From a virus: a stretch of 64,000 nt of DNA. The DNA is taken from positions 45,094 through 109,093 of the IMG/VR virus record IMGVR_UViG_3300037805_000525. One strand, given 5' to 3'. The position numbers and the translations under genes were made by a program. Each line of letters begins with the position of its first letter. Position 1 is the stretch's first letter. This document shows, piece after piece, positions 8,891 to 64,000 of this stretch. The notes below the pieces were generated by a model. The model worked only from the letters and a program-made list of their open reading frames with translations, made no database searches and had not been told where the DNA came from.

Positions 8891-10234
8891 TCAGCTCGTG
8901 AGTAGGTAGCCGCCGCCAGCGACCCCTGCGGCCGGAAGGAGCCGCAGCATCTCGTTCTTGACGCGTTCTGCACGGATGCGGGCGGACAGCGCGGTGATTC
9001 CACGCGCTGTCCCAAGACCTGCCACAGAGCCCGCCAGCGCGCCAGGGACGGCCTTGCGTGCGAGCAGCGACCCGGCAACTGCGCCGAGCATCGGTAGGGA
9101 CCGCAGAGCTGACGCGGACTTGACGTTGGCGCCAAGCAACTCACGTAGCTTGCGCACAGCAGCGCGTGCAGCCGCCGGCGGGTCCATACGTGTCTCTACT
9201 GATCGCACAGGATTCAGAAGGTCATGCAGGTTACGGTTTGGCCGCACTCGGCCAAGGAGATCAAGGCGCCCACCCGCGGGGGCTCGCAGCTGGCTCCGCA
9301 CCAGGCGCGACAGCTCACCGGGTACCGCAATCGCGCGCTGCAGGATTTCTCGGGCACCCGCGGTCTTCTCGTGAGACACCTTGGTGACCGGGGACCCTGC
9401 GCGCCACAACGCTTGGTTGAACGCATCGTGGAACGGCGGATCGAACTTCCTACCTGCCGCGACCCGGTCGTAGCGTGCCTGTGCGGCTGCGACGTCGGCG
9501 GGCATTCCGCGTGCCTGCGCGGCTGCGCGTCGGTGCGTGGGGCTTGCTGCCCGGCGCGCACCCGCCATTGCCGGACGCATACGCATACGCAACCAGCTAA
9601 GCAGCCCAGGTACGGATTTCACGCCCCGGCCTGCCATCCGCGCACTACCTAGTAGGCCACGGCCTGCCAGCCGCGCCCCGCCCACTGCGCCCTTACCAAG
9701 AAGCCGAGCGCCGGCAACTGAACCAATGAGCGCGGCGCGGCTGGCTGGGTGGTTCATGGCCCTTGTGAGGCCATGGCCTAGGTCCCAAGCCATGTTGCTG
9801 CGCAGGTTGGAGAAGATCTTGCCGAACGGGATAGCCGCCTCTTTAACAGGGAGCTGATCCGCGGCGAGGTGTGCCGCGACAACGGCGTCTTCAGGTGTTT
9901 CGCCGGGGCGGCCTATTACGCTCCGTGTCTTGTCGCCGAGCATGTCGGCTAGTTCGTCACGGTTGTGGTACGCCAACAAGCCGGCGCCAGCGGCGGCCAG
10001 AGGCAGGTACGGGAACGACCGACGTGGCCGTACCGTGTGGCCAAGCAGCGCGGCCGCGGCAACAGGTGTCAGCGCACCGACTGCCGCGATTCCCGCATCG
10101 CGCGCAAACGTGGTTTGCGCGCTGGACCTCTTCTCGCGAAGCTCGGCCATGACGCGGCTACGCACGCCGCGGCGCTCAGCGTGCGTAGCCGCACTGACGT
10201 GTATGGTAAGTCTTGGTGAGTCCATTATGCTCAT
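8891..10234 (-). CDS. Basic, Gly-zipper-rich putative internal head polyprotein
   Basis: 447 aa; modules separated by EKRSS, KEAA, EKTAG and KSAS motifs, several with GxxxG hydrophobic stretches. Confidence 0.55.
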   Translation of the reverse strand: MSIMDSPRLTIHVSAATHAERRGVRSRVMAELREKRSSAQTTFARDAGIAAVGALTPVAAAALLGHTVRPRRSFPYLPLAAAGAGLLAYHNRDELADMLGDKTRSVIGRPGETPEDAVVAAHLAADQLPVKEAAIPFGKIFSNLRSNMAWDLGHGLTRAMNHPASRAALIGSVAGARLLGKGAVGGARLAGRGLLGSARMAGRGVKSVPGLLSWLRMRMRPAMAGARRAASPTHRRAAAQARGMPADVAAAQARYDRVAAGRKFDPPFHDAFNQALWRAGSPVTKVSHEKTAGAREILQRAIAVPGELSRLVRSQLRAPAGGRLDLLGRVRPNRNLHDLLNPVRSVETRMDPPAAARAAVRKLRELLGANVKSASALRSLPMLGAVAGSLLARKAVPGALAGSVAGLGTARGITALSARIRAERVKNEMLRLLPAAGVAGGGYLLTS

Positions 10235-11130
10235 GGTGCCTCGTCCAGGTATCCGCGCAATCTCTTCGCGAGGTCCTTTTTTATACGTGATACTCGGTAG
10301 CTTTCGATGCCGAGCTTTTCTGCGATCTCGCCGGTGCCCAGCATGGGGGCCCCGAGCCCTACAACGTGTCGGTAGACCTTCTCGTCTTCCCCGTCCAACT
10401 CGTACACGAACATGCGCATGACCTCAGTCTCGCGCTCCGTGGTCATTGTGGTGGGGTCAACCTCAAAGTTCTGACTTACCAGGTCCCCACGTAGCTCAGT
10501 GTCCATCCGGGCGACTTCGGCCTCGGACCAGTCCAGGTGGTCCGCGAGCTCCGCGTCTGTCGGTGTGCGCTTGTGCTGCTCGGACAGTTCCGCGTGAGCG
10601 ACGGAGTATCCCTGAATCTTGTAAACACGGTTCTCTGGGATGCGCGCCACATTCTGGTGCGCGGCCACGTAGCGCTTCACCTTGTGTAGATGGTTCGCAA
10701 TGTGGGTGTTGAGCTGTGTTCCACGTTCCGGGTCGTACGTGCGCAGTGCCTTGACCGTACTTAACTTGTACTGCGCCATCAGTGCCTTGTCCGGGATCAT
10801 CCGTACGCGGCCCATGTGAATCTTGGCACGTGATTTGATGAACGGGGTCAGGCTCTTCATCAGCGGGGCGAGCTTCTCAGGATCTTCGCCAGAGTCCTTC
10901 CACGCCTGCCACATCGCCATCTCAGACTCACGTCGAGACAGCTTCATGGCGTCGGCAGCACGCTCTTTGACGCCATCACGCGTGTAGCGGGTGACGATGG
11001 TGAGCGCGCCGTCGCGCTTCTTGCGCAGGTGGGCCTTGACGTCGATGCGTCCGGCGGGTCCGGCGGGTGCGCGCTTCTTCTCGGCGAGCTTCAGAAACTC
11101 CCCGATATGATCTTCACTCGAGGTCGTCAT
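10231..11130 (-). CDS. RNA polymerase sigma70-family factor (FliA/SigB/SigF-like) with N-terminal extension
   Basis: Region 2 (ALRTYDPERGTQLNTH), region 3 (RTPTDAELADHLDWSEAEV) and region 4 HTH (TGEIAEKLGIESYRVSRI). Confidence 0.9.
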   Translation of the reverse strand: MTTSSEDHIGEFLKLAEKKRAPAGPAGRIDVKAHLRKKRDGALTIVTRYTRDGVKERAADAMKLSRRESEMAMWQAWKDSGEDPEKLAPLMKSLTPFIKSRAKIHMGRVRMIPDKALMAQYKLSTVKALRTYDPERGTQLNTHIANHLHKVKRYVAAHQNVARIPENRVYKIQGYSVAHAELSEQHKRTPTDAELADHLDWSEAEVARMDTELRGDLVSQNFEVDPTTMTTERETEVMRMFVYELDGEDEKVYRHVVGLGAPMLGTGEIAEKLGIESYRVSRIKKDLAKRLRGYLDEAP

Positions 11131-11178: not shown

Positions 11179-11949
11179 CTACTCCGACTCGGGGCGGAAG
11201 TTGAGCGTCTTGCCCTTGAGGATCGTGGCCGGCTTCTTGCCGAGATTTGCCTTGGCTGGGCCGGCGACGCTGGTGTTCAGCGCGGGGAGCTTGGCCGAGG
11301 CCGGGACACCGCCGCTCGGGGGCTTAGCACCACCAAGCCCACGAGCAGGCGTGGGTGCGTCGATCCCACCAGGTGATGTGGCGCCCATGACGCCGCTGCC
11401 GCCGCCAGGGATCTTCGCGTCCTTCGCGAACTTGTACATCTGCCGGATGCAGCGTGGGTCGAAGATGTTTACGAGGTTGTCGTCGGGGTGGCTCATATGG
11501 GCTCCTTGCGTGCTCGAGTTATCCGAGCTGTTTTTCATCATACCAAGTCCGGCGCCTGCCAAACCTGCATATAGCAGATGTTTCGGTGCGAGCCCTGGGC
11601 GAGTGGCTCCTGCGGCGGCACCATACATGTTTCGCAGGCGGCTGGCGCCCAGGCCAGCTTCAGCAAGCGTGTCGACCACGGCACCGCGCTGCGAGGCCGC
11701 CTGGTTTCTTATCAACGCCTCCATGCTACGCCTGCGGCGATCGAACTGCCACTTGCTAAGCAGTGGAATGTCCCCTTGCCCGCGCGCGAGTGCGGCCTCG
11801 AGACGTTGTGTGGTCACCTTCTTAGGAAGGCCGAAGAAGTGGTCCATCTTCGTCACAGGGCGCCCAAGTCCAGCGAGGCTGGTGGCGTCGTAGGGTAGGC
11901 GCTTTGCGCGGCGCCCCACTGCTTGTAGGAGTAGCTGCTTCAGGGACAT
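11179..11949 (-). CDS. Basic putative head protein with an internal in-frame start at 11496 carrying the FDPR leader
   Basis: 256-aa ORF; internal AAGGAG-N6-ATG gives MSHPDDNLVNIFDPRCIRQMYKFA. Confidence 0.65.
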   Translation of the reverse strand: MSLKQLLLQAVGRRAKRLPYDATSLAGLGRPVTKMDHFFGLPKKVTTQRLEAALARGQGDIPLLSKWQFDRRRRSMEALIRNQAASQRGAVVDTLAEAGLGASRLRNMYGAAAGATRPGLAPKHLLYAGLAGAGLGMMKNSSDNSSTQGAHMSHPDDNLVNIFDPRCIRQMYKFAKDAKIPGGGSGVMGATSPGGIDAPTPARGLGGAKPPSGGVPASAKLPALNTSVAGPAKANLGKKPATILKGKTLNFRPESE

Positions 11950-50711: not shown

Positions 50712-51914
50712 TCAGAAGTCGGTCACGGTGCCGACGGTGCCGCCCTTGCTGATCAGGTTGTTGAGCGCGCCGAACTCGCTCTCGGCCAACGGGGCGAACC
50801 GCGCCTGCATGGCGGTGTTCGCGCCGCCGGCGACTGTCTCAGCGCTGCCCGCGTAGAGCTCGAGCTTGCGCACGCCGGCGATGTTGCCGATGTACGTGGC
50901 GATGATCTTGTTGGCCTCGAAGGTGAAGCGGTCCAGCTCCTTGTCCACGTAGGACTTGAGCGGACGCAGCGTGGCGCAGCCACCAACAAACGAGCGATCG
51001 GCGAATGCGAAGATGTTGCCGGGACGAAGCACGCCAGTGTTCGTGGTCGTGGCGTACTTGATGCCTTGCACGGTCGAGTACTTGTACCCCTTGACCGTGG
51101 TCTCCTTGGCGATCTCATCACCGACTTCACTGGTGGACCAGTTGTTCATGTCGAGGATGTCGGTCGCCGAGATGCCGATCACCTTGCACTTGAGGTGGCT
51201 CTTGCGAGGACCGCCGGTGCCCGGGAACAGCTTGAGCAGCTTGGTGATGTCGTCCTTCTGCAGCGGGAAGAGTTGGTCGTCGACCACGCCTGCGGCAGCG
51301 CCCGCGGCGCCCGCGCCAGCTGTCAGCGCGTCAGTGCCCTTGACCTTGCCGATCTCAGGTACGCCGGCGGCCACGTTGAACGCGGTGAACGCGGTGTTCA
51401 CCGTGAGCGCAGTGCTGTACGCAATGCCCTGCTCTTCCTTCTGGTTGATGATGGTCGCGCCTTCGCACAGGACCACCTGGCGGCGGTCGTAGACCTCCAT
51501 CATGGCGTCGAGGGCCCGCTCACGGACCATTTTTTCCATGTCGTAGCGGTACGCCATCATGTCCAGTTCGGACTGCTGCAGGCGCTCGGTCTGCAGCTTG
51601 TAGAACGGGGTGAGGAACCGAGGGCTCGTGTAGTAGCGAACCTGGGGCTCGCCGCGGAACGACGCCGACATCGCGCGGGCCTCAGGACCACTCTCGACCA
51701 TGTAGGCGAGGGTGTCGTGCTCGGTGGAGCGCTGAATCTCGGGGTCCTTCTCACTGACCTTCTGCTCGGGCCAGATCTTCGCGAAGAGGCTGTCGCTCTT
51801 CTCTCGGTCGCGGATGAACGCCGTCATCTTGCTCGCGACCTTGGTCTTGCCGTCGGTCGTGCCGAGGAGATCCAAAAGCTCGTTGAAGTGCGCGGCGGTG
51901 AAGGATGTACTCAT
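50712..51914 (-). CDS. Major capsid protein
   Basis: 400 aa; strong codon bias; follows protease/scaffold/decoration genes; own terminator; FIRD..K..S...KI.P pattern. Confidence 0.8.
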
Positions 51915-52616: not shown

Positions 52617-52991
52617 TCAGCCGCCGTAGATCGCTTCGTTGAAAGATGCGGGCGTGTACTCCGCGTCGGCCTGCTTGACACTACTGAGTGACATGCCTGA
52701 GCCGTTGGGCTGAATGATCGCGAGCGCGCTCAACTTACCCTCGAGCTCCTCGATGCTGTTGTGCTCGCGCACGACAGAGGCGAGCTTCTCCTGGGCGGTA
52801 CCGTTGCCGCAGTAGCCCTTCTCGTCCATCACGCCGGTGACTTCGATTGCCTTGCGCAAAAACTCGAGCTCGGCAGTCACCTGCGCAGTCTTTGTTGCGT
52901 AGGCATCGCGCTCGGCCACGAGTGCTCGCAGCGTCGCGGGCACTGCTGCCAACACCTTTGTGGCGCGGTCGTCCATATCAGGCCTCCTCAT
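52617..52991 (-). CDS. Scaffold-like coiled-coil protein
   Basis: 124 aa (likely start at MDDR); TKTA, EKLAS and KQA motifs. Confidence 0.6.
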   Translation of the reverse strand: MRRPDMDDRATKVLAAVPATLRALVAERDAYATKTAQVTAELEFLRKAIEVTGVMDEKGYCGNGTAQEKLASVVREHNSIEELEGKLSALAIIQPNGSGMSLSSVKQADAEYTPASFNEAIYGG

Positions 52992-53472
52992 TGGCAGCGG
53001 CGTTGCGCAGGTCAGCGATCAAGTCATCGCTCGGAGCGCCGAGTGCTGCGTCGACTTCAGAATCCAGGTCGTAGCTGTCGTCGATCTCTGCAGGGGCCGC
53101 CTTGGCGGCGCCCAGCAGCTCAGCGTGCAGCGAGCTGGCGAACTTCTCAGCGGGCGCCGAGTGCGCGACAGCACCGTCCATGATGGCGGAGAGCGCATCT
53201 TCCGGGTCCAGCAGCGCGCCAGAGTCGCGCAACGCACGCTCGGTCAGCTGGTCCAGGGTGTCTGTGTGTGCTGAGGCGACCTTGGTGGGCGCGTACCCTA
53301 GGCCGTCGTCGTTGATCTGCTCTACCGCGTTCGCGAGCTTCTCAACAAACTCCGCGTCAGTGAGTGCGAGCTCAGCGAACTCAGCGAACTCATCCCCCGC
53401 TGACGCGTTCTTCTCCATGAGCTGGAGCAGCTCATCAGCTGGGCTGTTTGTGGGCATATCCGGCATATCCAC
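52978..53472 (-). CDS. Acidic scaffold/core-like protein
   Basis: 164 aa; EKNAS, EKLAN, TKVAS, EKFAS. Confidence 0.65.
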   Translation of the reverse strand: MDMPDMPTNSPADELLQLMEKNASAGDEFAEFAELALTDAEFVEKLANAVEQINDDGLGYAPTKVASAHTDTLDQLTERALRDSGALLDPEDALSAIMDGAVAHSAPAEKFASSLHAELLGAAKAAPAEIDDSYDLDSEVDAALGAPSDDLIADLRNAAANEEA

Positions 53473-53601: not shown

Positions 53602-54297
53602 CTACTGCTGCGCGTGCATGGCCTGTGCTTCGAGCGCGTCGTAGAACTCACCGAGGCCAGCGCCCATCTGATCGATCTGATCCTGCGACCAGCCGGCGCT
53701 TGCGAGCTTCATGGGGACGTAGGCGCCCAGCGCCTCCATGACGTCGTCGCCGAGGTTGAGGTCAATGACCGAGTAGCGGTCTTCGATGCCCGCGATCTTC
53801 TCGGGCTCCACCACGCCAGCGAACACCAGCACGTCGTTGGTGTAGTCCTCTGCGAGCTTGTGGAACTCAGCCTCGGTGATCTCGTTGAGGGCGACGGGCG
53901 CCTCCTCAATCTCCTCAGCGGCGGCCAGCTTCTCGAGCTGGTCGAAGAAGGCGTTGGCCTGGTGCTCGCCGACCAGGCGGCCATACTCGGCGGCCTCTGC
54001 GGCGGCAGTCTTCGTGAGGGTGGACTCGTAGAGTCCGGCGTCGGCGGGCGAAGCAACCTTGCTGGTTGTCTGCATTTCGGCTCCTGGGTCGCCCACCTGC
54101 GTGGACTCGTTGATGATCGAAACGATCGTGGGGACGTCTACGGACTTGTAGAGGTCGATCTGCTTTGCGCTGGCCTGCTTTTCCATGCGCTCCAGCGCCG
54201 GCTCGTGCTCCATGCCGACCTGTGCGAGGACCTCGTCACGTGCGGTGGGCTCGGAACCGAGTTCATTGAGCAGGTCTTGCAGCGAAGATTCGGACAT
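53602..54297 (-). CDS. Acidic prohead scaffold/core protein with seven KxA motifs
   Basis: 231 aa; EKQAS, SKVAS, TKTAA, EKLAA, HKLAE, EKIAG, MKLAS; directly after the protease gene. Confidence 0.7.
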   Translation of the reverse strand: MSESSLQDLLNELGSEPTARDEVLAQVGMEHEPALERMEKQASAKQIDLYKSVDVPTIVSIINESTQVGDPGAEMQTTSKVASPADAGLYESTLTKTAAAEAAEYGRLVGEHQANAFFDQLEKLAAAEEIEEAPVALNEITEAEFHKLAEDYTNDVLVFAGVVEPEKIAGIEDRYSVIDLNLGDDVMEALGAYVPMKLASAGWSQDQIDQMGAGLGEFYDALEAQAMHAQQ

Positions 54298-54319
54298 GGT
54301 TCGGGCTCCTCAATCAAAT

Positions 54320-54334
54320 TATCACAGTGTGATA
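54320..54334. promoter_or_regulatory. Palindromic site 12
   Basis: Perfect TATCACAGTGTGATA upstream of the scaffold gene. Confidence 0.85.
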
Positions 54335-54380
54335 CTGGCACCTCCAACTCTACCGAGTCTCGGGCGGCCCTCCAAGCGCA

Positions 54381-55955
54381 CTATACAAGGTGCGGCAACT
54401 TTTTGTTAATCAGCTTAGCCAACTCGACCATTCCCGTGGCTGCCGTGGCAGCAAGGATTGGGTGAGACTCTACAAGGTTCTCCACCGTACCCTTTTGCTG
54501 CGGGGCCTTGCGGGACGTATACGCCGAGTACAGGTACGCGAGCGGGAGTGCGATCGCGAAGTTCTTACTCGCGGCACCAGCGAGCTTCTCGAGGTCTGCC
54601 GAGCCGTCGTCATCTAGCGCGTCCGCAGGTAAGAAGCACTCACTGTAGTTGAGCAGGTCCTCTCTGTACGCGTCGTACGCGGCACCGATCTTGAGCATGC
54701 GCGGCGACGGGGGGCCCTGCGAGATTGTGATGTGTACGCTAACCGGCGGAGGCCCCGAACGAAGAGACCGGCCGGCAAACATACGAAGCAGCGCCCCCTG
54801 CAGCGACGCACCGCCTATCGCGCTGCCGTGGTCGGCGCGTAGTCCGCGCGTAACGCCTCGGTCCTCGGCGGGCAACCTGAAGCGTACGGCACTAGCAATG
54901 GGGCGTCCGGACGGGACAACCTGATCGCCTCGGAAGATGCCGCGCGCACGTGATGCCTGCCCCAGGGAGTGCATCAGCCCCGCGCCAAACTCTTGTGGGG
55001 ACAGCACGGCGCCCATACCTGTCAGGCTGCGTAGCACGGTGCCGAAGTTCCGACCCCGCGGGAACATCCCACGAAGCGACTCCTCTGGGATGCCTTTACG
55101 GCACGACTCCAGCGCAGGACCCAACTTGGAGGCCATAGCCGGGATACGCTTTACGAGTTCGGCCGTCTTGTCGTCCGCGACCTTCTCAGGTTGTGCATCC
55201 AGGAAGGTCTCTTCGGCGGATAGTGCGGGAAGCTCAGACGCGGCAGATGCAATCTTGAGCATCGTGTACCCAACCGCATCCGCGTTAACAACGACGAAAC
55301 TGATGTCGAAGAACACTGGGCGCGGGTTGTTGACGCACACCTGCTGCCCATCGTCCAGTATGCGATTCCGGCGCTGCTTCATGTGACTGCAGTAGTCGAA
55401 CGCCGTACGTGCTTTGTTCCCACACCCACGAATTCGGCAAACGTCGAACGGCACACGACAGCCCATGCTTACGGGGACCGCGACGCCGCGGTCTAGCCGT
55501 TCGTACAGATCGCCATGGCCGAACTCGATGCAACGCTTCTGGTCGACGCAGAGGATGAGCTCCACGCGGCGCATCAGCTGGTTGTACACCGCGTACACGA
55601 CGGAGCCGAACGACTTGGTGCGGTCCTTATTCCGGTGGTTGCGAAACACCCCCGCGGTGAGGAACGTACGGTGCCCCCAACGCGTAGTGCCGTCCACAGG
55701 ATTCAGCTGACTCTCCTGGAAGAAGTCGGCGTTGACGTTCGGGCCGTAGTAGTCGCCCGCGCCGAGGGCGTTGACCAGGACGTACAGGCAGTTTGGTTTC
55801 GGCGCGAGCGAGTCCACGAACGAACGAACACGCGGATCGTTTGTACTCGCCTTAAACGCCAGTTTTGTTCGGCCCTCGACAGACGAACCCGCCACAACGC
55901 GCATCGTGGCTTCGCCGTGCGGTGTCTCCTCTGGCAGGGCTGTGTACTTGTACAT
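54381..55955 (-). CDS. Prohead maturation serine protease with Zn-finger insertion
   Basis: N.N.D.F, FRNH (His), VSMGC (Ser), C...C...C.H and FFDISFV..AD motifs of herpes/HK97-fold prohead proteases. Confidence 0.8.
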   Translation of the reverse strand: MYKYTALPEETPHGEATMRVVAGSSVEGRTKLAFKASTNDPRVRSFVDSLAPKPNCLYVLVNALGAGDYYGPNVNADFFQESQLNPVDGTTRWGHRTFLTAGVFRNHRNKDRTKSFGSVVYAVYNQLMRRVELILCVDQKRCIEFGHGDLYERLDRGVAVPVSMGCRVPFDVCRIRGCGNKARTAFDYCSHMKQRRNRILDDGQQVCVNNPRPVFFDISFVVVNADAVGYTMLKIASAASELPALSAEETFLDAQPEKVADDKTAELVKRIPAMASKLGPALESCRKGIPEESLRGMFPRGRNFGTVLRSLTGMGAVLSPQEFGAGLMHSLGQASRARGIFRGDQVVPSGRPIASAVRFRLPAEDRGVTRGLRADHGSAIGGASLQGALLRMFAGRSLRSGPPPVSVHITISQGPPSPRMLKIGAAYDAYREDLLNYSECFLPADALDDDGSADLEKLAGAASKNFAIALPLAYLYSAYTSRKAPQQKGTVENLVESHPILAATAATGMVELAKLINKKLPHLV

Positions 55956-57253: not shown

Positions 57254-58645
57254 CTACTGCGCGGTCTGCTGGGGATTTGCCGGTACGGCGTTGTCCGCGG
57301 TCGGCTGCTGGCCCAGGCCTGCCCCGTTCGACGCGGCGGGGCCCTGAGGCGCCCCTTGTGGCGCCATGCCGGGAGGGGCCATGCCGGGCGGAGGCCCCAT
57401 GCCCTGCGGAGGCATACCGGGAGGCACCATGCCGGGCGGTAGTGCGGTAGGCATGTCCAGGCCAGGAGGGGGTGCTGAAAACAGGCCTGCCGCGCCCGTG
57501 AGCTGCTCGTCGCTGCCGGTGAGGTATCCCAGCAGGTTCGAGTTCGTACCGACCGCCTGGTTGATGAGCATCTGCACCTCTGTAAGGCGCCCAACAATCC
57601 CGTTCAGGTCTTGCACGAGTCCTGGGACGGGCATGCCCATACCGGGGGCCATACCGGGAGGGGCCATACCGGGAGGGGCCATGTTCGGATCCATGCCGGG
57701 AGGGGCCATGTTCGGATCCATGCCGGGAGGGGCCATGTTCGGATCCATGCCGGGAGGCGGCATTCCTGCCTGTGGAGGGGGCGGTGCCATCGCGCCAGGC
57801 ATACCCTGTCCGACGTTCGGCGTGGAGGTCATCCCGGGGCCCACGACGACGTTCGGTGCGCGAGGCGGGGACTCGCTGAACATCTCGCTCGGGTCCACGC
57901 CAGCTTGCGCCATCGTGTCGTTAGACCGGCTACCGCGCCGCGCAAGTTTACACACGCCAGACAAGCGCGAGTCGATGAGCGCGCGTAGGCCGTGCGACGG
58001 GTTACCTGCGAGGACGAGATCGCCAACGCTCTCTGGGGGCAACCCCTGATCCTCGTGGAGCTGCTGCGCGGCGTGCTTCAGCATCCCAAACTTGCGGTTG
58101 AAGTCGGAGGTGTACTGCGCACGCAGGACGCGCGCTTCGCTGACACCATGGCTGATCTTTTCGAACAACGCGGACCGCTCGTAATCCGTGAGCGGTTCCG
58201 CCGATGCGGTCTTCTCCACCGCGTCGTCGGACAGCCAGGCGCGCACAGAGTTAACTGCGGCGGACTTCTCGAGGCGCGCTGCCGCGGTCTTGATCGCAGC
58301 TGGGCTCGGCGTCTTTGGTGCAGCCACGGGCACAGCCTTCAATTTCTCAGTGACTGAGGCCACCGCGACCTTTGGGTTAACGACGGGAAACGACACGTTC
58401 CCGGTTGCGTCGGGCATCCGCAGCGCGAGGAAGGTCTGGACGTTTGCGGCCTCCGCCAGCCGGGTTGTTTGGTCCCGGTTGAAGCCCTGATCGCGTGCGA
58501 TCTTGACGACAGACTCGAGCAGCGGGGTCTGGTTTGTCCTGAAGGCGTTTGCGGCCTGCTTGGCGAAGTCAGCGATCTCGCGCTCGGAGAACGCGCGCTG
58601 GCCCGACCCGACAAGGCTACGTAGTGATGTGTTTAGGGACTCCAC
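57254..58645 (-). CDS. Head-associated protein with many KxA motifs and a Pro/Gly/Met low-complexity C-terminus
   Basis: AGGAG-N7-GTG start at 58645; KQAA, KIAR, KTAA, EKSAA, EKTAS, KHAA, KLAR. Confidence 0.7.
   Translation of the reverse strand: MESLNTSLRSLVGSGQRAFSEREIADFAKQAANAFRTNQTPLLESVVKIARDQGFNRDQTTRLAEAANVQTFLALRMPDATGNVSFPVVNPKVAVASVTEKLKAVPVAAPKTPSPAAIKTAAARLEKSAAVNSVRAWLSDDAVEKTASAEPLTDYERSALFEKISHGVSEARVLRAQYTSDFNRKFGMLKHAAQQLHEDQGLPPESVGDLVLAGNPSHGLRALIDSRLSGVCKLARRGSRSNDTMAQAGVDPSEMFSESPPRAPNVVVGPGMTSTPNVGQGMPGAMAPPPPQAGMPPPGMDPNMAPPGMDPNMAPPGMDPNMAPPGMAPPGMAPGMGMPVPGLVQDLNGIVGRLTEVQMLINQAVGTNSNLLGYLTGSDEQLTGAAGLFSAPPPGLDMPTALPPGMVPPGMPPQGMGPPPGMAPPGMAPQGAPQGPAASNGAGLGQQPTADNAVPANPQQTAQ
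57669..57757. repeat. Exact 27-bp tandem repeat x3.3 encoding MDPNMAPPG
   Basis: Unit CCGGGAGGGGCCATGTTCGGATCCATG. Confidence 0.95.
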
Positions 58646-58742
58646 GAACAAACTCCTGTGCGCAATCTCTATCAGAGAATAGTACCGCAAATGCGTGTGC
58701 TGGGAGAGTGGGTGCTCTCTGTGGGGGCGCCCCTGCCGAAAT

Positions 58743-58757
58743 TATCACACTGTGATA
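58743..58757. promoter_or_regulatory. Palindromic site 13 (extends to AATTATCACACTGTGATAATT)
   Basis: Perfect palindrome between terL and the next head gene. Confidence 0.85.
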
Positions 58758-58774
58758 ATTGCTGGGTGCGCCAG

Positions 58775-60556
58775 CTAGCGCGGACTATCCGGTACGAGAA
58801 TCTCCGGGTTAGGGAACACAGTGAGTAGCGCGAGCATCGCGTAGATCATGCTGTGCAATGTGTCGTCTGACGTGCCTGGGCGCTTCTGGATGATGGGGCG
58901 GGTGCCCTGGCGGGTCATCTCTGCGAACACCGCGAGCAGGTCGGTCATAAACGGGTCCACAATGGAGTCCCACGACGGTAGGCGTATGTACGTCTTTTTG
59001 TACACGGCGTACACAAAGCGCATGATGATTTCTGTGCGGTTCACCATGAACCTGTTCAACTTGGTGTCGAAGTACAAAAGCGACGCGCCGCAGTACTGAT
59101 ACGTGATGACGCGCTGTGGGCCTAGCAGCTTCACTAGCTCGTAGTTTTTGTCGTAGCCGCCGCCGTAGTCAGAGCCCACTAACTGCACGTTGAACTGCTT
59201 TACGATCTTCATGATCTCAGGGATCAGCTTGTCTATGTGCGACTCGTGCGCCAAGAATCGGCGGAAGTACACGTACTGCATCTTGCCGCCCAGCATCATG
59301 ACCACCGTGACCAGCGTGTACGATGCGGCTTCGCCCGTACCCCAGTCGACCCCCATGAATGCCGGTCCGCGCCCAGCGAACTTGTGACCATCCTTTAGGT
59401 GGAACCCAGACAGGCAGTTTGGGAGGATCTTCTCCTTCGGCAGAAGCTTATCCGAGGAGTCGTGCGCGAGCCCCATGATCTCGTTCATGAACTCCGCGAC
59501 AGGATAGTTCTCCAGCTTGTCCCGTACGTCAGCCCACTCAACGCGCGGCGACACTACCTGCGGGATCCTGTACCCCTCAAAGCGCGTGTTCGGGTCCGTC
59601 TCGTTCAGCCACTTACGGGAACGGGCAGACACCCACTCAGCGTTCTCCGAATCCTGCGGGTGGAGCTGTGCGCTGCACCGCTCGCACACCAGGAAGTTGA
59701 GGCCGATGTTTTTCATCGACGTGATGTTCCAGTGGTTGCAGTGCGTGCAGCGCATTGCCCACTCGTACTTTGTGGACCGCTCCTCCCAGTAGTAGTTGAT
59801 TGGGTTGTCCGTTGACTTGGGCGTGCCTGCGTAGATCTCGTACTTGTACATTGACGTGAACAAGGTCTCGCGGATAACAGGGAGGAGCTCTGCGAGTATG
59901 TCTTGCAGCTCGTCTACCGCAAGAAGGTCTGCGGACAGGCCTCGGACACGGTCCGCGTTATGCCTGGCGTAGCTGAGCGTAAGTACGCTGTCCGACATGA
60001 ACCGCTTAGTGAACATGTTGTCGGTGAGCTTGTTGCCGCGCGCGGACCCCTTGAATACCTGCAGCTCTGGGCTGAATCGGATGGGGTCGGAGACTCTGAA
60101 GGACGAGAACCGCTTCGTCTGCGTCTCGGACGGAGAGATGTACAGCGTCCTGAAGTTGGGGCGCAGACAGCTGTGCGCGATTATCTTGTTCCCGACTGTC
60201 GTCGACTTCGCCACCTGGCGTGCGCACATGTACAGCTGGCGGCGCCCAGACGAGTTATAGGGCTGCACTAGGTACGGTTGGTCGGCGATCGAAAAGGGCA
60301 CAAGGCTGCTATCGGCCAGGTCGTCTCGGTCCTGCTGCGTTAGCTGTACGTCGTCCTCGAACCCAGCGTACTCGGCCGTACCTTCCTCCGCAGCCTTTAT
60401 GAGCGCGGCGTTCGGGATACGAATCGCCTCCTGCACCCAGTCCGCTACCGGCACGCGGATCACCTCCATGTTGGCGATCCGCTCCCTGGCCGAGTTAGTA
60501 GCGTCACCACCCCATCTGCCCAGCGTAGCCGCGTCGTCTGCCTTATAAATCTTCAT
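58775..60556 (-). CDS. terL: Terminase large subunit (start uncertain; frame open to 60820)
   Basis: Walker A ARQVAKST, Walker B LAVDE, coupling motif AGTP, CxxC..CxxC finger, RNase H-like GVDWG and DDTLHS. Confidence 0.9.
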   Translation of the reverse strand: MKIYKADDAATLGRWGGDATNSARERIANMEVIRVPVADWVQEAIRIPNAALIKAAEEGTAEYAGFEDDVQLTQQDRDDLADSSLVPFSIADQPYLVQPYNSSGRRQLYMCARQVAKSTTVGNKIIAHSCLRPNFRTLYISPSETQTKRFSSFRVSDPIRFSPELQVFKGSARGNKLTDNMFTKRFMSDSVLTLSYARHNADRVRGLSADLLAVDELQDILAELLPVIRETLFTSMYKYEIYAGTPKSTDNPINYYWEERSTKYEWAMRCTHCNHWNITSMKNIGLNFLVCERCSAQLHPQDSENAEWVSARSRKWLNETDPNTRFEGYRIPQVVSPRVEWADVRDKLENYPVAEFMNEIMGLAHDSSDKLLPKEKILPNCLSGFHLKDGHKFAGRGPAFMGVDWGTGEAASYTLVTVVMMLGGKMQYVYFRRFLAHESHIDKLIPEIMKIVKQFNVQLVGSDYGGGYDKNYELVKLLGPQRVITYQYCGASLLYFDTKLNRFMVNRTEIIMRFVYAVYKKTYIRLPSWDSIVDPFMTDLLAVFAEMTRQGTRPIIQKRPGTSDDTLHSMIYAMLALLTVFPNPEILVPDSPR

Positions 60557-60629: not shown

Positions 60630-61256
60630 CTACGCGCCTGCTGCGGCACGCGCTCGGATGAGGCGGTCATTGATCTCGCTGGTCCGGCGCTGGGCTGCGC
60701 GCTCGGCAGCGGTTGTCCCGTCGTGCCCCGGGCGCATGTCGCGCCCGGTAACACGGCCAGCCAGCCCCACTGCCGCATCGACAGGCGAGGGGATATTCCA
60801 GCGCTTGACCTCGTCAACAAGCGAGTTTCCGTAGTCCAGCGCCTTCTCTCCGTAGCCTCTGCGAGAGAGGCGCCGCGCCTCGGCCACCTCAGCTTGATCG
60901 CGGAGAGCGCGCTTTTGTGCGGCCATGGCCTTACGGACCTTCGCGGCCCGGTGCTGCGCGATCATGATGTTGCGGCCTTCGCGCATGAGGCGATCTCCGT
61001 CCGCGGTGTTGCGCTCATGCTGTGTTGCGTTGTCACCGCGAGGGCCAATGTCGCGCCCCATCGCCTTGGAGATCCCGCGCTCCAGAAGGTCCACCGCGCC
61101 CGTACGTGCGTTCTCGACGTGGCGCCCGATCGTCTTCCCAGACTCGGACAGGAAGCCGCCCACGTTGTCGAGCGTTACGTCGTCCATCGAGAACGCGAGT
61201 TTGGTGGCGTGGCGCAAGAAGCGCGGATCGAAAACGCTGGCTCGTTGGTCTGGCAT
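60630..61256 (-). CDS. FDPR-leader family protein, type A
   Basis: GGAGG SD; MPDQRASVFDPRFLRHATKLAFS; paralogue of 63390..63845. Confidence 0.8.
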   Translation of the reverse strand: MPDQRASVFDPRFLRHATKLAFSMDDVTLDNVGGFLSESGKTIGRHVENARTGAVDLLERGISKAMGRDIGPRGDNATQHERNTADGDRLMREGRNIMIAQHRAAKVRKAMAAQKRALRDQAEVAEARRLSRRGYGEKALDYGNSLVDEVKRWNIPSPVDAAVGLAGRVTGRDMRPGHDGTTAAERAAQRRTSEINDRLIRARAAAGA

Positions 61257-61319
61257 TAGAGGCACCTCCGGTATTGGTGTGCCTAGGATAGCATGTGGCG
61301 GGTGCTTCGGCTGGCGGGG

Positions 61320-62096
61320 CTACCGACGGGCCTTGCTCTTCGCATACGCTGCGCGTGCCGCGCGTGTACGTGGGCCTACGATCCCGTCGATACCGCCGAC
61401 GTCGAACCCTGCGTCCTTGAGGCGCTTCTGCTCCGCCTTGATTGCGCTAATCCGGCTTTTGCTTGGGCGTCGGTGACGGGGCTTCGTACCACCCGCGCCG
61501 GAGTACGGCGGTGTCTTCGCGGGAGCCTTCTTTGGCGCCTGCGAGTATCCGCCGCGGTTGGTGGGCTGTACGCTCTGGATCTCCTCCGAGTAGTTCTTCT
61601 CCGGAGCGTCCTTTGGCATGGACATGTTCGGCATGCTGCGGTTGGGTGCGTCCTTGTCCCGCGGCATGGACATGTTCGGGCCCTCGGCGGGAGTTCCGAT
61701 GCTCATGGGCGGGTTCCTACGCTTCGGTGCCGGCTTACGCTTCGGTGCCGGCTTGGGGAGTCGGCGGTTCGTCCCACGCATGGTGGCGGTTGTGCCTTGG
61801 CGCTTTGGCTTGCCCGGCTCGAGGTTCGCGCGTAGACGTGCCTTGGCGCTCTCCCAGGACGTAGGGTTCGCACTCCCAGCGGGGAGGGGCGCTTTCGGCT
61901 TCTTAGGGAACCCGCGAACACTGGTCGACGCGGGGTTCCTGCGCCCAAGGTCCGTACGTGCAGCGGGCGTGTCCGGCCTAGCTTGCGCCTTGAGCGCGCG
62001 CCGGGCTGCGTACACGGAGTCCTCGGACTCCGCGGCAAGCTTGGTTACCTGGCGCAAGAAGCGTGGATCGAAAACGCTGATCATTTGGTCGGACAT
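61320..62096 (-). CDS. FDPR-leader family protein, type B, with C-terminal peptidoglycan-binding-like domain
   Basis: MSDQMISVFDPRFLRQVTKLAA; disordered Pro/Lys/Arg linker; Q..L..AG...G.IDGIVGPRT.AA motif of PG_binding_1. Confidence 0.75.
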   Translation of the reverse strand: MSDQMISVFDPRFLRQVTKLAAESEDSVYAARRALKAQARPDTPAARTDLGRRNPASTSVRGFPKKPKAPLPAGSANPTSWESAKARLRANLEPGKPKRQGTTATMRGTNRRLPKPAPKRKPAPKRRNPPMSIGTPAEGPNMSMPRDKDAPNRSMPNMSMPKDAPEKNYSEEIQSVQPTNRGGYSQAPKKAPAKTPPYSGAGGTKPRHRRPSKSRISAIKAEQKRLKDAGFDVGGIDGIVGPRTRAARAAYAKSKARR

Positions 62097-62245
62097 CGGT
62101 GGTGTCTCCGCGGTTGGTGCCACTAGGGTAGCACGCGGAAAGACGGGTACGGTGGGGTGCCGTCTAGTTGCCTGCCATGAGGGGCATGGTGCGCGCGCTG
62201 CTCACGTACGGGCGCGGTGCGCTATTCTGTTGCGCCGATGGCTTC

Positions 62246-62352
62246 TAGGCAGGATTGGGCCGCGTTCGGGCTACCGGCGCTGGGCTGCGAGCGCTCGGCG
62301 AGAGACGCCTGCTTCCTCGCCGCCGTCGCTCGAGCTGCCGTAGGGGTTGCGC
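62246..62352. repeat. 107-bp direct repeat, copy 1
   Basis: Identical to 63894..64000. Confidence 0.95.
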
Positions 62353-63359
62353 AGCTTGCGCGGATCAAACTTCGTAGCCACCGGCGCAGCTGGGTTATGC
62401 CCATACGCCATACGATCCATGCGCGACTTGAGTGCGCTGTTGCGTGCGAATGCCGCCCGCGCGGCGCGCGTCTTCGGGCCAACGATCCCATCAGCCGCGA
62501 CGCCGAGACGCCTCTGCTCGGCCTTAATCGCGTTGATCTTGGCGCGGCTCAGGCGGCTGCGGCGCCTGGGCGCTTTCTTGGGCGTTGCAGCCGCAGGTGC
62601 GGCTGCCGGGCTGGCCGGCGTTGCACCAGACCCGGGCGGTACGTGCACAGGCCCCGCGTTCGTACTCATGTTCGCGTTGGCAGGAGATGAGCTCTGCGCG
62701 GGAGTGGATGGCTTGAATGCGGGCTTGGGCGCTGACGACATGTTCGGCGCGGACTGCGGACTACTTCCTGAGGAGGCCGGTGGCGCGAACACAGGCCCCG
62801 CGTTCGTACTCATGTTCGCATTGGCAGGTGACATGCCTCCCCTGCTGGGCGCAGGTTTACTGCTCGTGGCGGGCGTAGGAGTGGCGGGCGTAGGCTTGCC
62901 GAGCGGGGCGCCGGGCGTAGGCTTGTCCGTCCACCTGTTAGGGACGCTCCCGGACGTTTGGGGGCGGGGCTGGCCCCACCTGTTAGGGACGGCGCGCGGC
63001 TTGGGCGGCGTCGCCGAGCTGATGCCGCGTCGGCGCGTTGTGGGTGGGTTGACGTTCCCGCTGGCCGCGGAGGATGCCGCACCGGAGATTGGCGCGGCAG
63101 CGGACTGCATCATATTGCTGAGCCAGCCGCCCTTGGTAGGTCCGGCCCCGCTAACGTTCGAGGCTGCACCGGACTGGGCACGGTTTGCCTGCGTCTTCTG
63201 GTACGGCGTTAGCGGTGCAGCAGGCACGGCGGGCGGTATGCGCCTGGGGGTAACCCCACGATTGGCCTGTGTCTGCTGGTACGGTGTTAGCGGCGCGGCC
63301 ACCTTCACGAGGTGCCGCATGAAGCGCGGGTCAAAAACGCTGACGTCTTGGTCTTCCAT
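62271..63359 (-). CDS. FDPR-leader family protein, type B, with peptidoglycan-binding-like domain
   Basis: MEDQDVSVFDPRFMRHLVKVAA; internal duplications; EQRRLGVAADGIVGPKTRAA. Confidence 0.75.
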   Translation of the reverse strand: MEDQDVSVFDPRFMRHLVKVAAPLTPYQQTQANRGVTPRRIPPAVPAAPLTPYQKTQANRAQSGAASNVSGAGPTKGGWLSNMMQSAAAPISGAASSAASGNVNPPTTRRRGISSATPPKPRAVPNRWGQPRPQTSGSVPNRWTDKPTPGAPLGKPTPATPTPATSSKPAPSRGGMSPANANMSTNAGPVFAPPASSGSSPQSAPNMSSAPKPAFKPSTPAQSSSPANANMSTNAGPVHVPPGSGATPASPAAAPAAATPKKAPRRRSRLSRAKINAIKAEQRRLGVAADGIVGPKTRAARAAFARNSALKSRMDRMAYGHNPAAPVATKFDPRKLRNPYGSSSDGGEEAGVSRRALAAQRR

Positions 63360-63389
63360 CTAAGTACTCCGGTGAAGGCGGTTAGCGAA

Positions 63390-63845
63390 TTACAGCTGCT
63401 GCCCGAGCAGCCGCTGGATGTCGATCTTCGACGGACCGTAGCCGCCCAGGACGCCGGGTCCCGCGGGGCGCGGACGGAACGTGTCGGCTTTTCGCGGCAC
63501 GTACCCCTCGGACATTTGGCGCAGTGCGCCTCGCGCACCACGGTGCCGTGCGTAGCGCTGCTTGTCACGGTTAGCCACGAACGCTGCGCCTCGGCGTGAG
63601 GCGGCGCGTGCGAGTCCCCGCTGCACGTTTGTCATGTTGTCGCCGTCGACGTCCCGCCCCGCGAAGCTGGACAGCGCGCGCTCTAGCTTCGTGGAGGCGT
63701 TGTCGGCCCACCGCCTAGCGCCAGTACCCACCTCGCTGGCGAACCCCTTGAGGTTGTCGAGCGTGAGATCTTCCATAGAGAAGGCGAGTTTCGTGGCGTG
63801 CCGCAGGTGGCGCGGGTCAAATACGCTGACATTCTGCTCAGGCAT
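63390..63845 (-). CDS. FDPR-leader family protein, type A
   Basis: MPEQNVSVFDPRHLRHATKLAFS. Confidence 0.8.
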   Translation of the reverse strand: MPEQNVSVFDPRHLRHATKLAFSMEDLTLDNLKGFASEVGTGARRWADNASTKLERALSSFAGRDVDGDNMTNVQRGLARAASRRGAAFVANRDKQRYARHRGARGALRQMSEGYVPRKADTFRPRPAGPGVLGGYGPSKIDIQRLLGQQL

Positions 63846-63893
63846 GTTGGGCTCCAGTACTGGTGCCCAAAGAATAGCATGTAGGCGGGTGGG

Positions 63894-64000
63894 TAGGCAG
63901 GATTGGGCCGCGTTCGGGCTACCGGCGCTGGGCTGCGAGCGCTCGGCGAGAGACGCCTGCTTCCTCGCCGCCGTCGCTCGAGCTGCCGTAGGGGTTGCGC
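63894..64000. repeat. 107-bp direct repeat, copy 2; 3' end of a further paralogue truncated by the window edge (stop at 63919)
   Basis: Identical to 62246..62352 up to the window end. Confidence 0.9.

Follow-up and report, generated by a model that had tools for sequence, protein, structure and literature searches.

The stretch analysed here, called the window throughout, comprises 64,000 nucleotides and forms the last 64 kb of a 109,093-bp IMG/VR virus record (IMGVR_UViG_3300037805_000525; completeness 61% by CheckV). At its end lies an array of minus-strand phage genes, A to D, whose proteins begin with a common short leader, SVFDPRxxRxxxKxA, and continue into differing sequences (the cargos). 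We consider that this leader is a cleavable two-part propeptide which would load its cargo into the prohead in a T4-like manner, and we put the probability of this reading at roughly 0.55. The array, its neighbour and a fifth leader-like copy are as follows.

60630-61256, minus strand: gene A, 208 amino acids (aa), directly upstream of terL; leader at 61194-61256; cargo helical and basic, with an isoelectric point (pI) of 10.4 and no family match.
61320-62096, minus strand: gene B, 258 aa; leader at 62034-62096; cargo with a basic middle rich in K, R and P (pI 11.4) and a PG_binding-like segment at its C-terminus.
62271-63359, minus strand: gene C, 362 aa; leader at 63297-63359; cargo with a basic middle rich in P, S, A and T (pI 12.0), a short PG_binding-like segment and a conserved C-terminal tail.
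63390-63845, minus strand: gene D, 151 aa; leader at residues 1-21 (63783-63845); mature part with pI 11.0.
63919-64000, minus strand: 3' end of C2, a further gene of the leader family, which runs off the contig.
58775-60556, minus strand: terL, the large terminase (GpA-type ATPase), immediately downstream of the array.
11179-11496, minus strand: copy E, 105 aa from the ATG at 11496; leader-like 24 residues (NIFDPRCIRQMYKFA) at 11425-11496; remainder rich in G, P, A and K and basic (pI 10.3).

The complete C2 is present at positions 10001-10837 of L005, a 50.6-kb IMG/VR record, where the DNA preceding it is not in the window's record. C2 was also seen in the metagenome contig L006 (99.8% identity), directly upstream of D. 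Because L006 joins C2 to D and L005 carries the whole of C2, the true gene order, as read from these contigs, is C2-D-C-B-A-terL.

The first-pass annotation of this DNA had described four consecutive genes with a shared leader, always ending in K-x-A and followed by sequence that differs between protein types, and this description stood up in full. The four N-termini are exactly as quoted, every aligned leader ends in K-L/V/F/T-A, and the cargos of A and D, of B, C and C2, and of E could not be aligned with one another, as local alignment scores between A/D and B/C/C2, and between either group and E, were at noise level. Within the groups, A and D are paralogous over about 80 residues past the leader, and B, C and C2 have in common a low-complexity basic middle and a short C-terminal segment. 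Across these unalignable cargos, 13-18 of the first 21 residues are identical among A, B, C, D and C2, with F9, D10, P11, R15, K19 and A21 invariant. The codons at these invariant residues alternate between synonyms (TTC/TTT, GAT/GAC, CCG/CCA, CGC/CGG, AAA/AAG and GCG/GCC), the leader DNA is only 63-77% identical between copies, and the peptide leader is kept in C and E, where the upstream DNA is unrelated. These observations therefore point to selection acting on the leader peptide rather than to a recent copy of the DNA, and the resemblance is more than recent whole-gene duplication would account for.

The same evidence bears on the idea that the shared 5' end is an expression cassette, a duplicated or converted module of promoter, ribosome-binding site and start codon whose peptide has no function. 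All four genes A to D start with ATG, each with GGAG before it, and three of them carry an additional element at a fixed distance.

61285-61293, minus strand: TGCTATCCT, an extended -10-like element, 29 nt upstream of A.
62125-62133: sister -10-like element of B, with the same TGCTAYYCT pattern.
63871-63879: sister -10-like element of D, with the same TGCTAYYCT pattern.

The TGCTAYYCT element is located upstream of A, B and D and nowhere else in the genome, and a consensus scan for sigma-70-type promoters found none. Conversion is shown to occur in the locus by a 107-nt exact direct repeat, in which 62246-62352 (3' end of C) and 63894-64000 (3' end of C2) are 100% identical; from its sequence, this repeat is a sign of recent gene conversion. 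It coincides with both the window contig end and the end of the L005 record, and it probably broke both assemblies; the real genome size is about 180 kb. Although the module and the conversion both favour an expression cassette, the modest DNA identity of the leaders with synonymous differences at invariant residues, and the retention of the peptide in C and E despite their unrelated upstream DNA, argue against it, and we regard a functionless peptide as very improbable.

The leader core is also specific to these genes. Translation of the 109-kb record in six frames contains FDPR at six places, each of them in a member of the leader family, and the motif is therefore not a chance one. A hidden Markov model of the leader, searched against 5.8 billion and 1.84 billion proteins, matched only the window phage's own proteins, and leader profiles found nothing beyond these proteins in IMG/VR and the JGI metagenomes. 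A homolog search with A returned only A itself, and the leader motif was absent from the distant terminase relatives L001-L004. Judged by these protein sets and metagenomes, the leader is private to the window phage. Two groups of candidates were set aside as chance: L007-L009, where the pattern matched without a start codon or context, and P0083, a 278-aa ORF that scored only by summing eight weak repeats. P0083 holds eight tandem copies of a 15-residue leader-like unit (R-D-L-R-F-L-R-H-A-A-K-V-A-T-T) and is probably a translated DNA tandem repeat that matches the leader by chance.

The ending of the leader, K-x-A, can be related to the head proteins and prohead protease of the window phage, which are encoded in the block between terL and the capsid gene.

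54381-55955, minus strand: prohead protease, with a predicted T4 gp21 fold at residues 50-223 and a 300-aa C-terminal extension; conserved K-x-A sites at residues 31-33, 234-236 and 457-459.
57254-58690, minus strand: 478-aa protein with 8 K-x-A against 1.7 expected, in its N-terminal half.
53602-54297, minus strand: acidic scaffold-like protein with 7 K-x-A against 1.3 expected, including AFFDQLEKLA, the canonical motif of the clade.
52978-53472, minus strand: acidic protein with 5 K-x-A against 1.1 expected.
50712-51914, minus strand: major capsid protein, HK97 fold, with the sequence TKVA followed by S at residues 24-28 and the putative cut between A and S.

At the sequence level the ORF at 54381-55955 had no Pfam match and a weak PHROG match to head maturation proteases, and 77 homologs were found, mostly from contigs of 120-190 kb. 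An AlphaFold model built on 37 of the 77 homologs had T4 gp21 (5jbl_A) as its best match (VIA Z 10.1, root-mean-square deviation 2.8 Å, 130 residues aligned), followed by the herpesvirus assemblins (Z 6-7.8). On the basis of this model, the ORF is a prohead protease of the T4 gp21 fold, encoded about 5 kb from the array. All 37 homologs have K31 and A33 without exception, and conservation is at least 90% at K234/A236 and at K457. The K-x-A sites thus placed bracket the predicted catalytic domain, as expected for self-processing; in T4, the self-processing sites of gp21 likewise bracket the protease (PMC9026906). Three of the homologs (P0036, P0056 and P0073) are 870-910 aa in length and contain intein or LAGLIDADG Pfam domains, which suggests that inteins are inserted in the prohead protease gene of some members of the clade.

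When each of the 115 predicted proteins was shuffled separately and K.A or K-hydrophobic-A was counted, enrichment was found in four proteins only, whose genes all belong to the head block that separates terL from the capsid gene: the protease itself (4 K-x-A against 0.7 expected) and the three proteins listed with their counts above. Most of the contexts in these proteins are E/T-K-x-A followed by S, A or G. The C-terminal half of the 57254-58690 protein is made up of PPGM/DPNMAPPGM repeats. The protein gave no family match, and it looks like an internal head protein processed by the protease. A TATCACA-N-TGTGATA palindrome (about 58700-58760 and 54300-54340) lies directly upstream of the K-x-A-rich genes 57254 and 53602. 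For the capsid protein, a PDB search with the AlphaFold2 model (predicted TM-score 0.78) gave 240 matches at E<=0.001, headed by phage capsids and encapsulins. A match was also obtained with the protein annotated as capsid in phage Arash.

More than 500 related IMG/VR stretches, belonging to an uncultured clade with genomes of ~180 kb, were recovered with a protease profile, and the comparative counts given here rest on 80 fetched loci. The gene order is conserved in the related loci, with terL followed by three small genes, the protease, scaffold-like genes and the capsid gene. The N-terminal K-x-A of the capsid protein (K25, A27) is invariant in 62 of 62 distinct orthologs that are 21-45% identical to that of the window. 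In ORFs on the protease strand, the density of K-hydrophobic-A/S was 12.6-16.6 per 1000 residues at positions 11-40 and about 6 per 1000 further into the ORFs, compared with about 2.5 per 1000 for the reversed motif or for genes on the opposite strand. The motif was present at residues 8-40 in 39% of 1068 protease-strand ORFs (8% in the control), and the ORFs between the protease and capsid genes held 898 sites where 215 were expected. Taken together, the invariant capsid site, the N-terminal density and the excess between protease and capsid therefore indicate that the K-x-A ending of the leader is, at the sequence level, a clade-wide signature of head proteins, concentrated at their N-termini.

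Cultured relatives are limited to Salmonella phage Arash and Vibrio phages D69, D181 and D148, with 22-39% identity in the terminase, protease and capsid. The K-I/L-A motif was absent from the 68 kb of Arash that were scanned, and the Arash paper presents virion proteomics with no processing reported. A 667-aa protein of the window phage (L005:2363-4366), from a part of the genome missing in the window's record, could be the portal by its size and position, and PHROGs gave no match. In about a dozen loci, its relatives of ~700 aa have first 14-18 residues that end in F-E/Q-K-T/V/L-A/S. The likeness of the N-terminus of L005:2363-4366 to the leader was no better than that of shuffled sequences and was discarded.

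The related loci also contain what appears to be a parallel leader. Within-locus comparisons revealed small genes in tandem whose products have a common N-terminal pattern, hydrophobic-x-x-F-x-D-E-L-x-K-I/L-A, or GFxDELxK(I/L)A, referred to here as the canonical leader. The extended motif occurred 128 times in the related loci against 21 times for its reverse, and with a start codon no more than 20 residues upstream there were 78 cases against none for the reverse. In three loci (L038, L085 and L055) genes with the canonical leader are immediately upstream of terL, the same place as A to D, and in about ten more loci they are within 3.5 kb of terL. The mature parts of 22 N-terminal cases are 57-228 aa in length and all basic (pI 9.4-11.9), and when six cases scored as internal were added, the resulting 28 cargos fell into 24 unrelated clusters. 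One 195-aa leader-tagged protein just upstream of terL (L055:4798-5382) matches phrog_1128 (E 9e-15), labelled enoyl-CoA hydratase/carnithine racemase-like; by this match the canonical leader would here precede a cargo resembling an enzyme.

The canonical and window leaders are alike in their N-terminal position, their K-hydrophobic-A ending, their small, basic and unrelated cargos and, in several genomes, their place upstream of terL. They differ in that the sequences before K-x-A are unrelated. In the window phage, the canonical motif is kept only inside the scaffold-like protein 53602-54297. From these comparisons, the window phage seems to use a private address with a common ending.

The mature cargos of the window have pI values of 10.3-12.0 and are, by their predicted properties, small, strongly basic and largely disordered. 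No match was found for A, D or E in Pfam, PHROGs or the ESM Atlas. B, C and C2 scored 15-23 bits against PG_binding_1/PG_binding_3, below the Pfam cut-offs of 23-24.6 and over only about 25-40 residues, and the same stretch matched PHROG endolysin families at E values of 5e-5 to 2e-3 over a shared segment of only about 40 residues. A segment of this kind would suit action on the envelope after ejection, on a match of only about 40 residues. These sub-threshold matches, together with an R-F-L-R stretch that is faintly Tat-like, could be taken to mean that the leader is an export signal sending the proteins through Sec or Tat to the periplasm. However, A and D have no envelope-related features, and a Sec or Tat signal was rejected on the aligned leaders, which are charged throughout, have no hydrophobic core of at least 10 residues and contain single arginines only; export by this route is extremely improbable.

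Two further proteins of the window phage may be noted beside the cargos. An 851-aa SNF2-type helicase (L005:7209-9764), with an Ala/Gly-rich N-terminal extension of 250 aa and faint DarB-like antirestriction matches, is encoded between the portal-sized gene (L005:2363-4366) and the leader array; this helicase may itself be packaged. The first 16 residues of a phage sigma factor (10231-11130) end in E-F-L-K-L-A, with a K-x-A site at residues 14-16. Virion preparations of Arash, a distant relative, were found to contain the sigma factor as well as subunits of RNA polymerase (PMC10585845), and packaging of the window's sigma factor is a possibility raised by its N-terminus.

The two-part propeptide proposed here could work as follows. 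The conserved S-V-F-D-P-R-x-hydrophobic-R stretch would be a docking peptide for the assembling prohead core, and the last three leader residues (K-L/V/F-A) would be the cut site of the gp21-like prohead protease, which appears to cut after K-hydrophobic-A/S throughout the clade. Docking would hold the cargo in the prohead core until the protease cut frees the basic mature protein inside the head. The cargos would then be internal or ejected head proteins from a fast-changing locus upstream of the terminase gene. Maturation would leave the C-terminal FDPRKLR of C and C2 in place, and through it both proteins could stay bound to the same partner.

The first-pass annotation had proposed a capsid-targeting signal that was address tag and cleavage site at once, and the two halves fared differently. 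The cleavage site is supported indirectly, by the gp21-fold protease, the K-x-A enrichment and the conservation in the clade, whereas the address tag we infer; K-x-A cleavage, head entry and FDPR as an address are proposals for a phage known from metagenomic records alone. The address function is suggested by analogy with the T4 capsid-targeting sequence (CTS), the conservation of 15 residues before the cut, the basic and diverse cargos and the matching locus of the relatives. It is favoured because the conservation extends over 15 residues before the putative cut, which exceeds a protease footprint.

This extent of conservation also bears on another explanation, in which the leader is a propeptide cut at K-x-A and is not a head address. 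FDPR would then be a protease exosite or would keep the cargo inert or soluble until maturation, and the basic cargo itself would bring about entry, for example by binding the acidic scaffold. A cut site at K-x-A has far more evidence behind it than targeting has, and with very basic cargos and acidic scaffold-like proteins, charge alone could be sufficient for recruitment. However, 15 residues before the cut are conserved across unrelated cargos, with 9-13 residues in the relatives, a stretch longer than the usual protease footprint, and targeting in T4 needs no more than the equivalent 10 residues (PMC9026906). A propeptide without an address is therefore, in our view, unlikely.

Several observations weigh against the two-part propeptide. 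The K-V-A site of the capsid model falls in a predicted helix, and in the leaders the position that follows the putative cut (F, A, A, F, K and G) varies more than in the scaffold-like proteins, where it is S/A/G. The window leader scores -6.5 to -15.6 on a position weight matrix from the canonical leader of the relatives, and these negative scores rule it out as a diverged canonical leader. The TGCTAYYCT element is not common to the capsid and scaffold genes, so co-expression of the array with the head genes is not supported. The FDPRxLR core is also C-terminal in C and C2, where cleavage would not remove it.

62349-62369, minus strand: second core motif, FDPRKLR, near the C-terminus of C; the same in C2; not followed by K-x-A.

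Finally, the fifth copy reported by the annotation 50 kb away is present in the sequence, and its N-terminal status is uncertain, since E lies in frame within a longer ORF (11179-11949) of 256 aa, called in databases as a 222-aa form. A strong ribosome-binding site (AAGGAG-N6-ATG) stands directly before the ATG at 11496, and the third-position GC content around this start is 0.66 upstream against 0.82 downstream. E may be internal to a protein of 222-256 aa.

The core motif near the C-terminus of C and C2, and perhaps internal in a long E, would fit a docking motif for some other partner, with FDPRxLR binding the terminase, the portal, a tail part or a host protein from either end and without being removed, and the array does abut terL. 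However, every N-terminal copy has the K-x-A of head proteins at a fixed spacing, which the C-terminal copy does not have, and the leader that relatives carry at this locus, although a different one, ends in the same way. This makes a partner outside the prohead core rather improbable, although less so than the expression cassette.

Beyond the two-part propeptide of the window phage, a wider scheme can be put forward tentatively, at somewhat less than even odds. The gp21-fold protease of the clade would have an undescribed K-hydrophobic-A/S specificity, modular N-terminal addresses would load a changing set of small basic proteins, encoded beside the terminase gene, into the head, and the common address GFxDELxKIA would have been replaced in the window phage by the private SVFDPRxLR, which is also C-terminal in two cargos. 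Replacement of a common address by a private one would therefore imply a co-evolved receptor inside the prohead.

If the leader is what we propose, tailed phages would have a second capsid-loading tag system, recognisable independently, with a different protease code and readable from sequence alone, and a scan for leaders would yield lists of the proteins that hundreds of uncultured phages package and inject. Such packaged proteins would be likely anti-defence or host-takeover factors. The reading would also predict, in a form open to testing, where the capsid, scaffold and protease proteins of the clade are cut, and would provide phage engineering with an alternative packaging tag.

Encapsulin cargo-loading peptides are usually C-terminal, are not removed and involve no protease; the proposed leader resembles them as a short portable peptide directing diverse cargo into an HK97-fold shell. 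The maturation and release sites of herpesvirus assemblins are cut after Ala and before Ser. The window phage has the protease fold in common with them, as well as Ala at P1, which in the scaffold-like proteins often has Ser, Ala or Gly after it, and differs in the constant Lys at P3 and in the best fold match, which is T4 gp21.

In the giant phages phiKZ, 201phi2-1 and SPN3US, head maturation cuts after A/S/G-x-E, many head and ejection proteins including the portal and capsid lose N-terminal propeptides, and the protease removes its own C-terminal part (PMC10052503). SPN3US gp245 removes propeptides of 20 and 24 residues from two substrates at A-x-E (PMC10052503). The window phage differs in its cut motif and in the sharing of one leader across paralogous cargos, which is not reported in PMC10052503. 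Its genome is about 180 kb, no link to the phiKZ-like giant phages was seen, and by terminase, protease and capsid the nearest cultured phages are Arash and D69/D181/D148.

The closest parallel is T4, where propeptides of 10-19 residues direct IPI-III and Alt into the prohead core before gp21 cleaves them off; gp21 also trims the scaffold, the capsid protein and itself (PMC9026906). The principle is therefore already established in T4, and our finding extends a known idea. The leader described here differs from the T4 CTS in its length of 21-24 residues, in the C-terminal reuse of its core motif in two members and in being known from sequence alone. The sequence comparison with T4 covered the cut motif: the putative cut is after K-hydrophobic-A with no Glu before it, whereas T4 gp21 cuts after L/I-x-E. 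As with the CTS of IPI, IPII, IPIII and Alt, a short N-terminal propeptide is common to otherwise unrelated small basic proteins, T4 internal proteins being basic too (PMC9026906), and it ends in the putative cut motif of a gp21-fold protease that is also present in the scaffold, capsid and protease. In both phages the genes are in a variable locus (PMC9026906). The array thus probably belongs to a capsid-targeting system of the T4 kind whose protease code is apparently different, in a clade of phages as yet unstudied.

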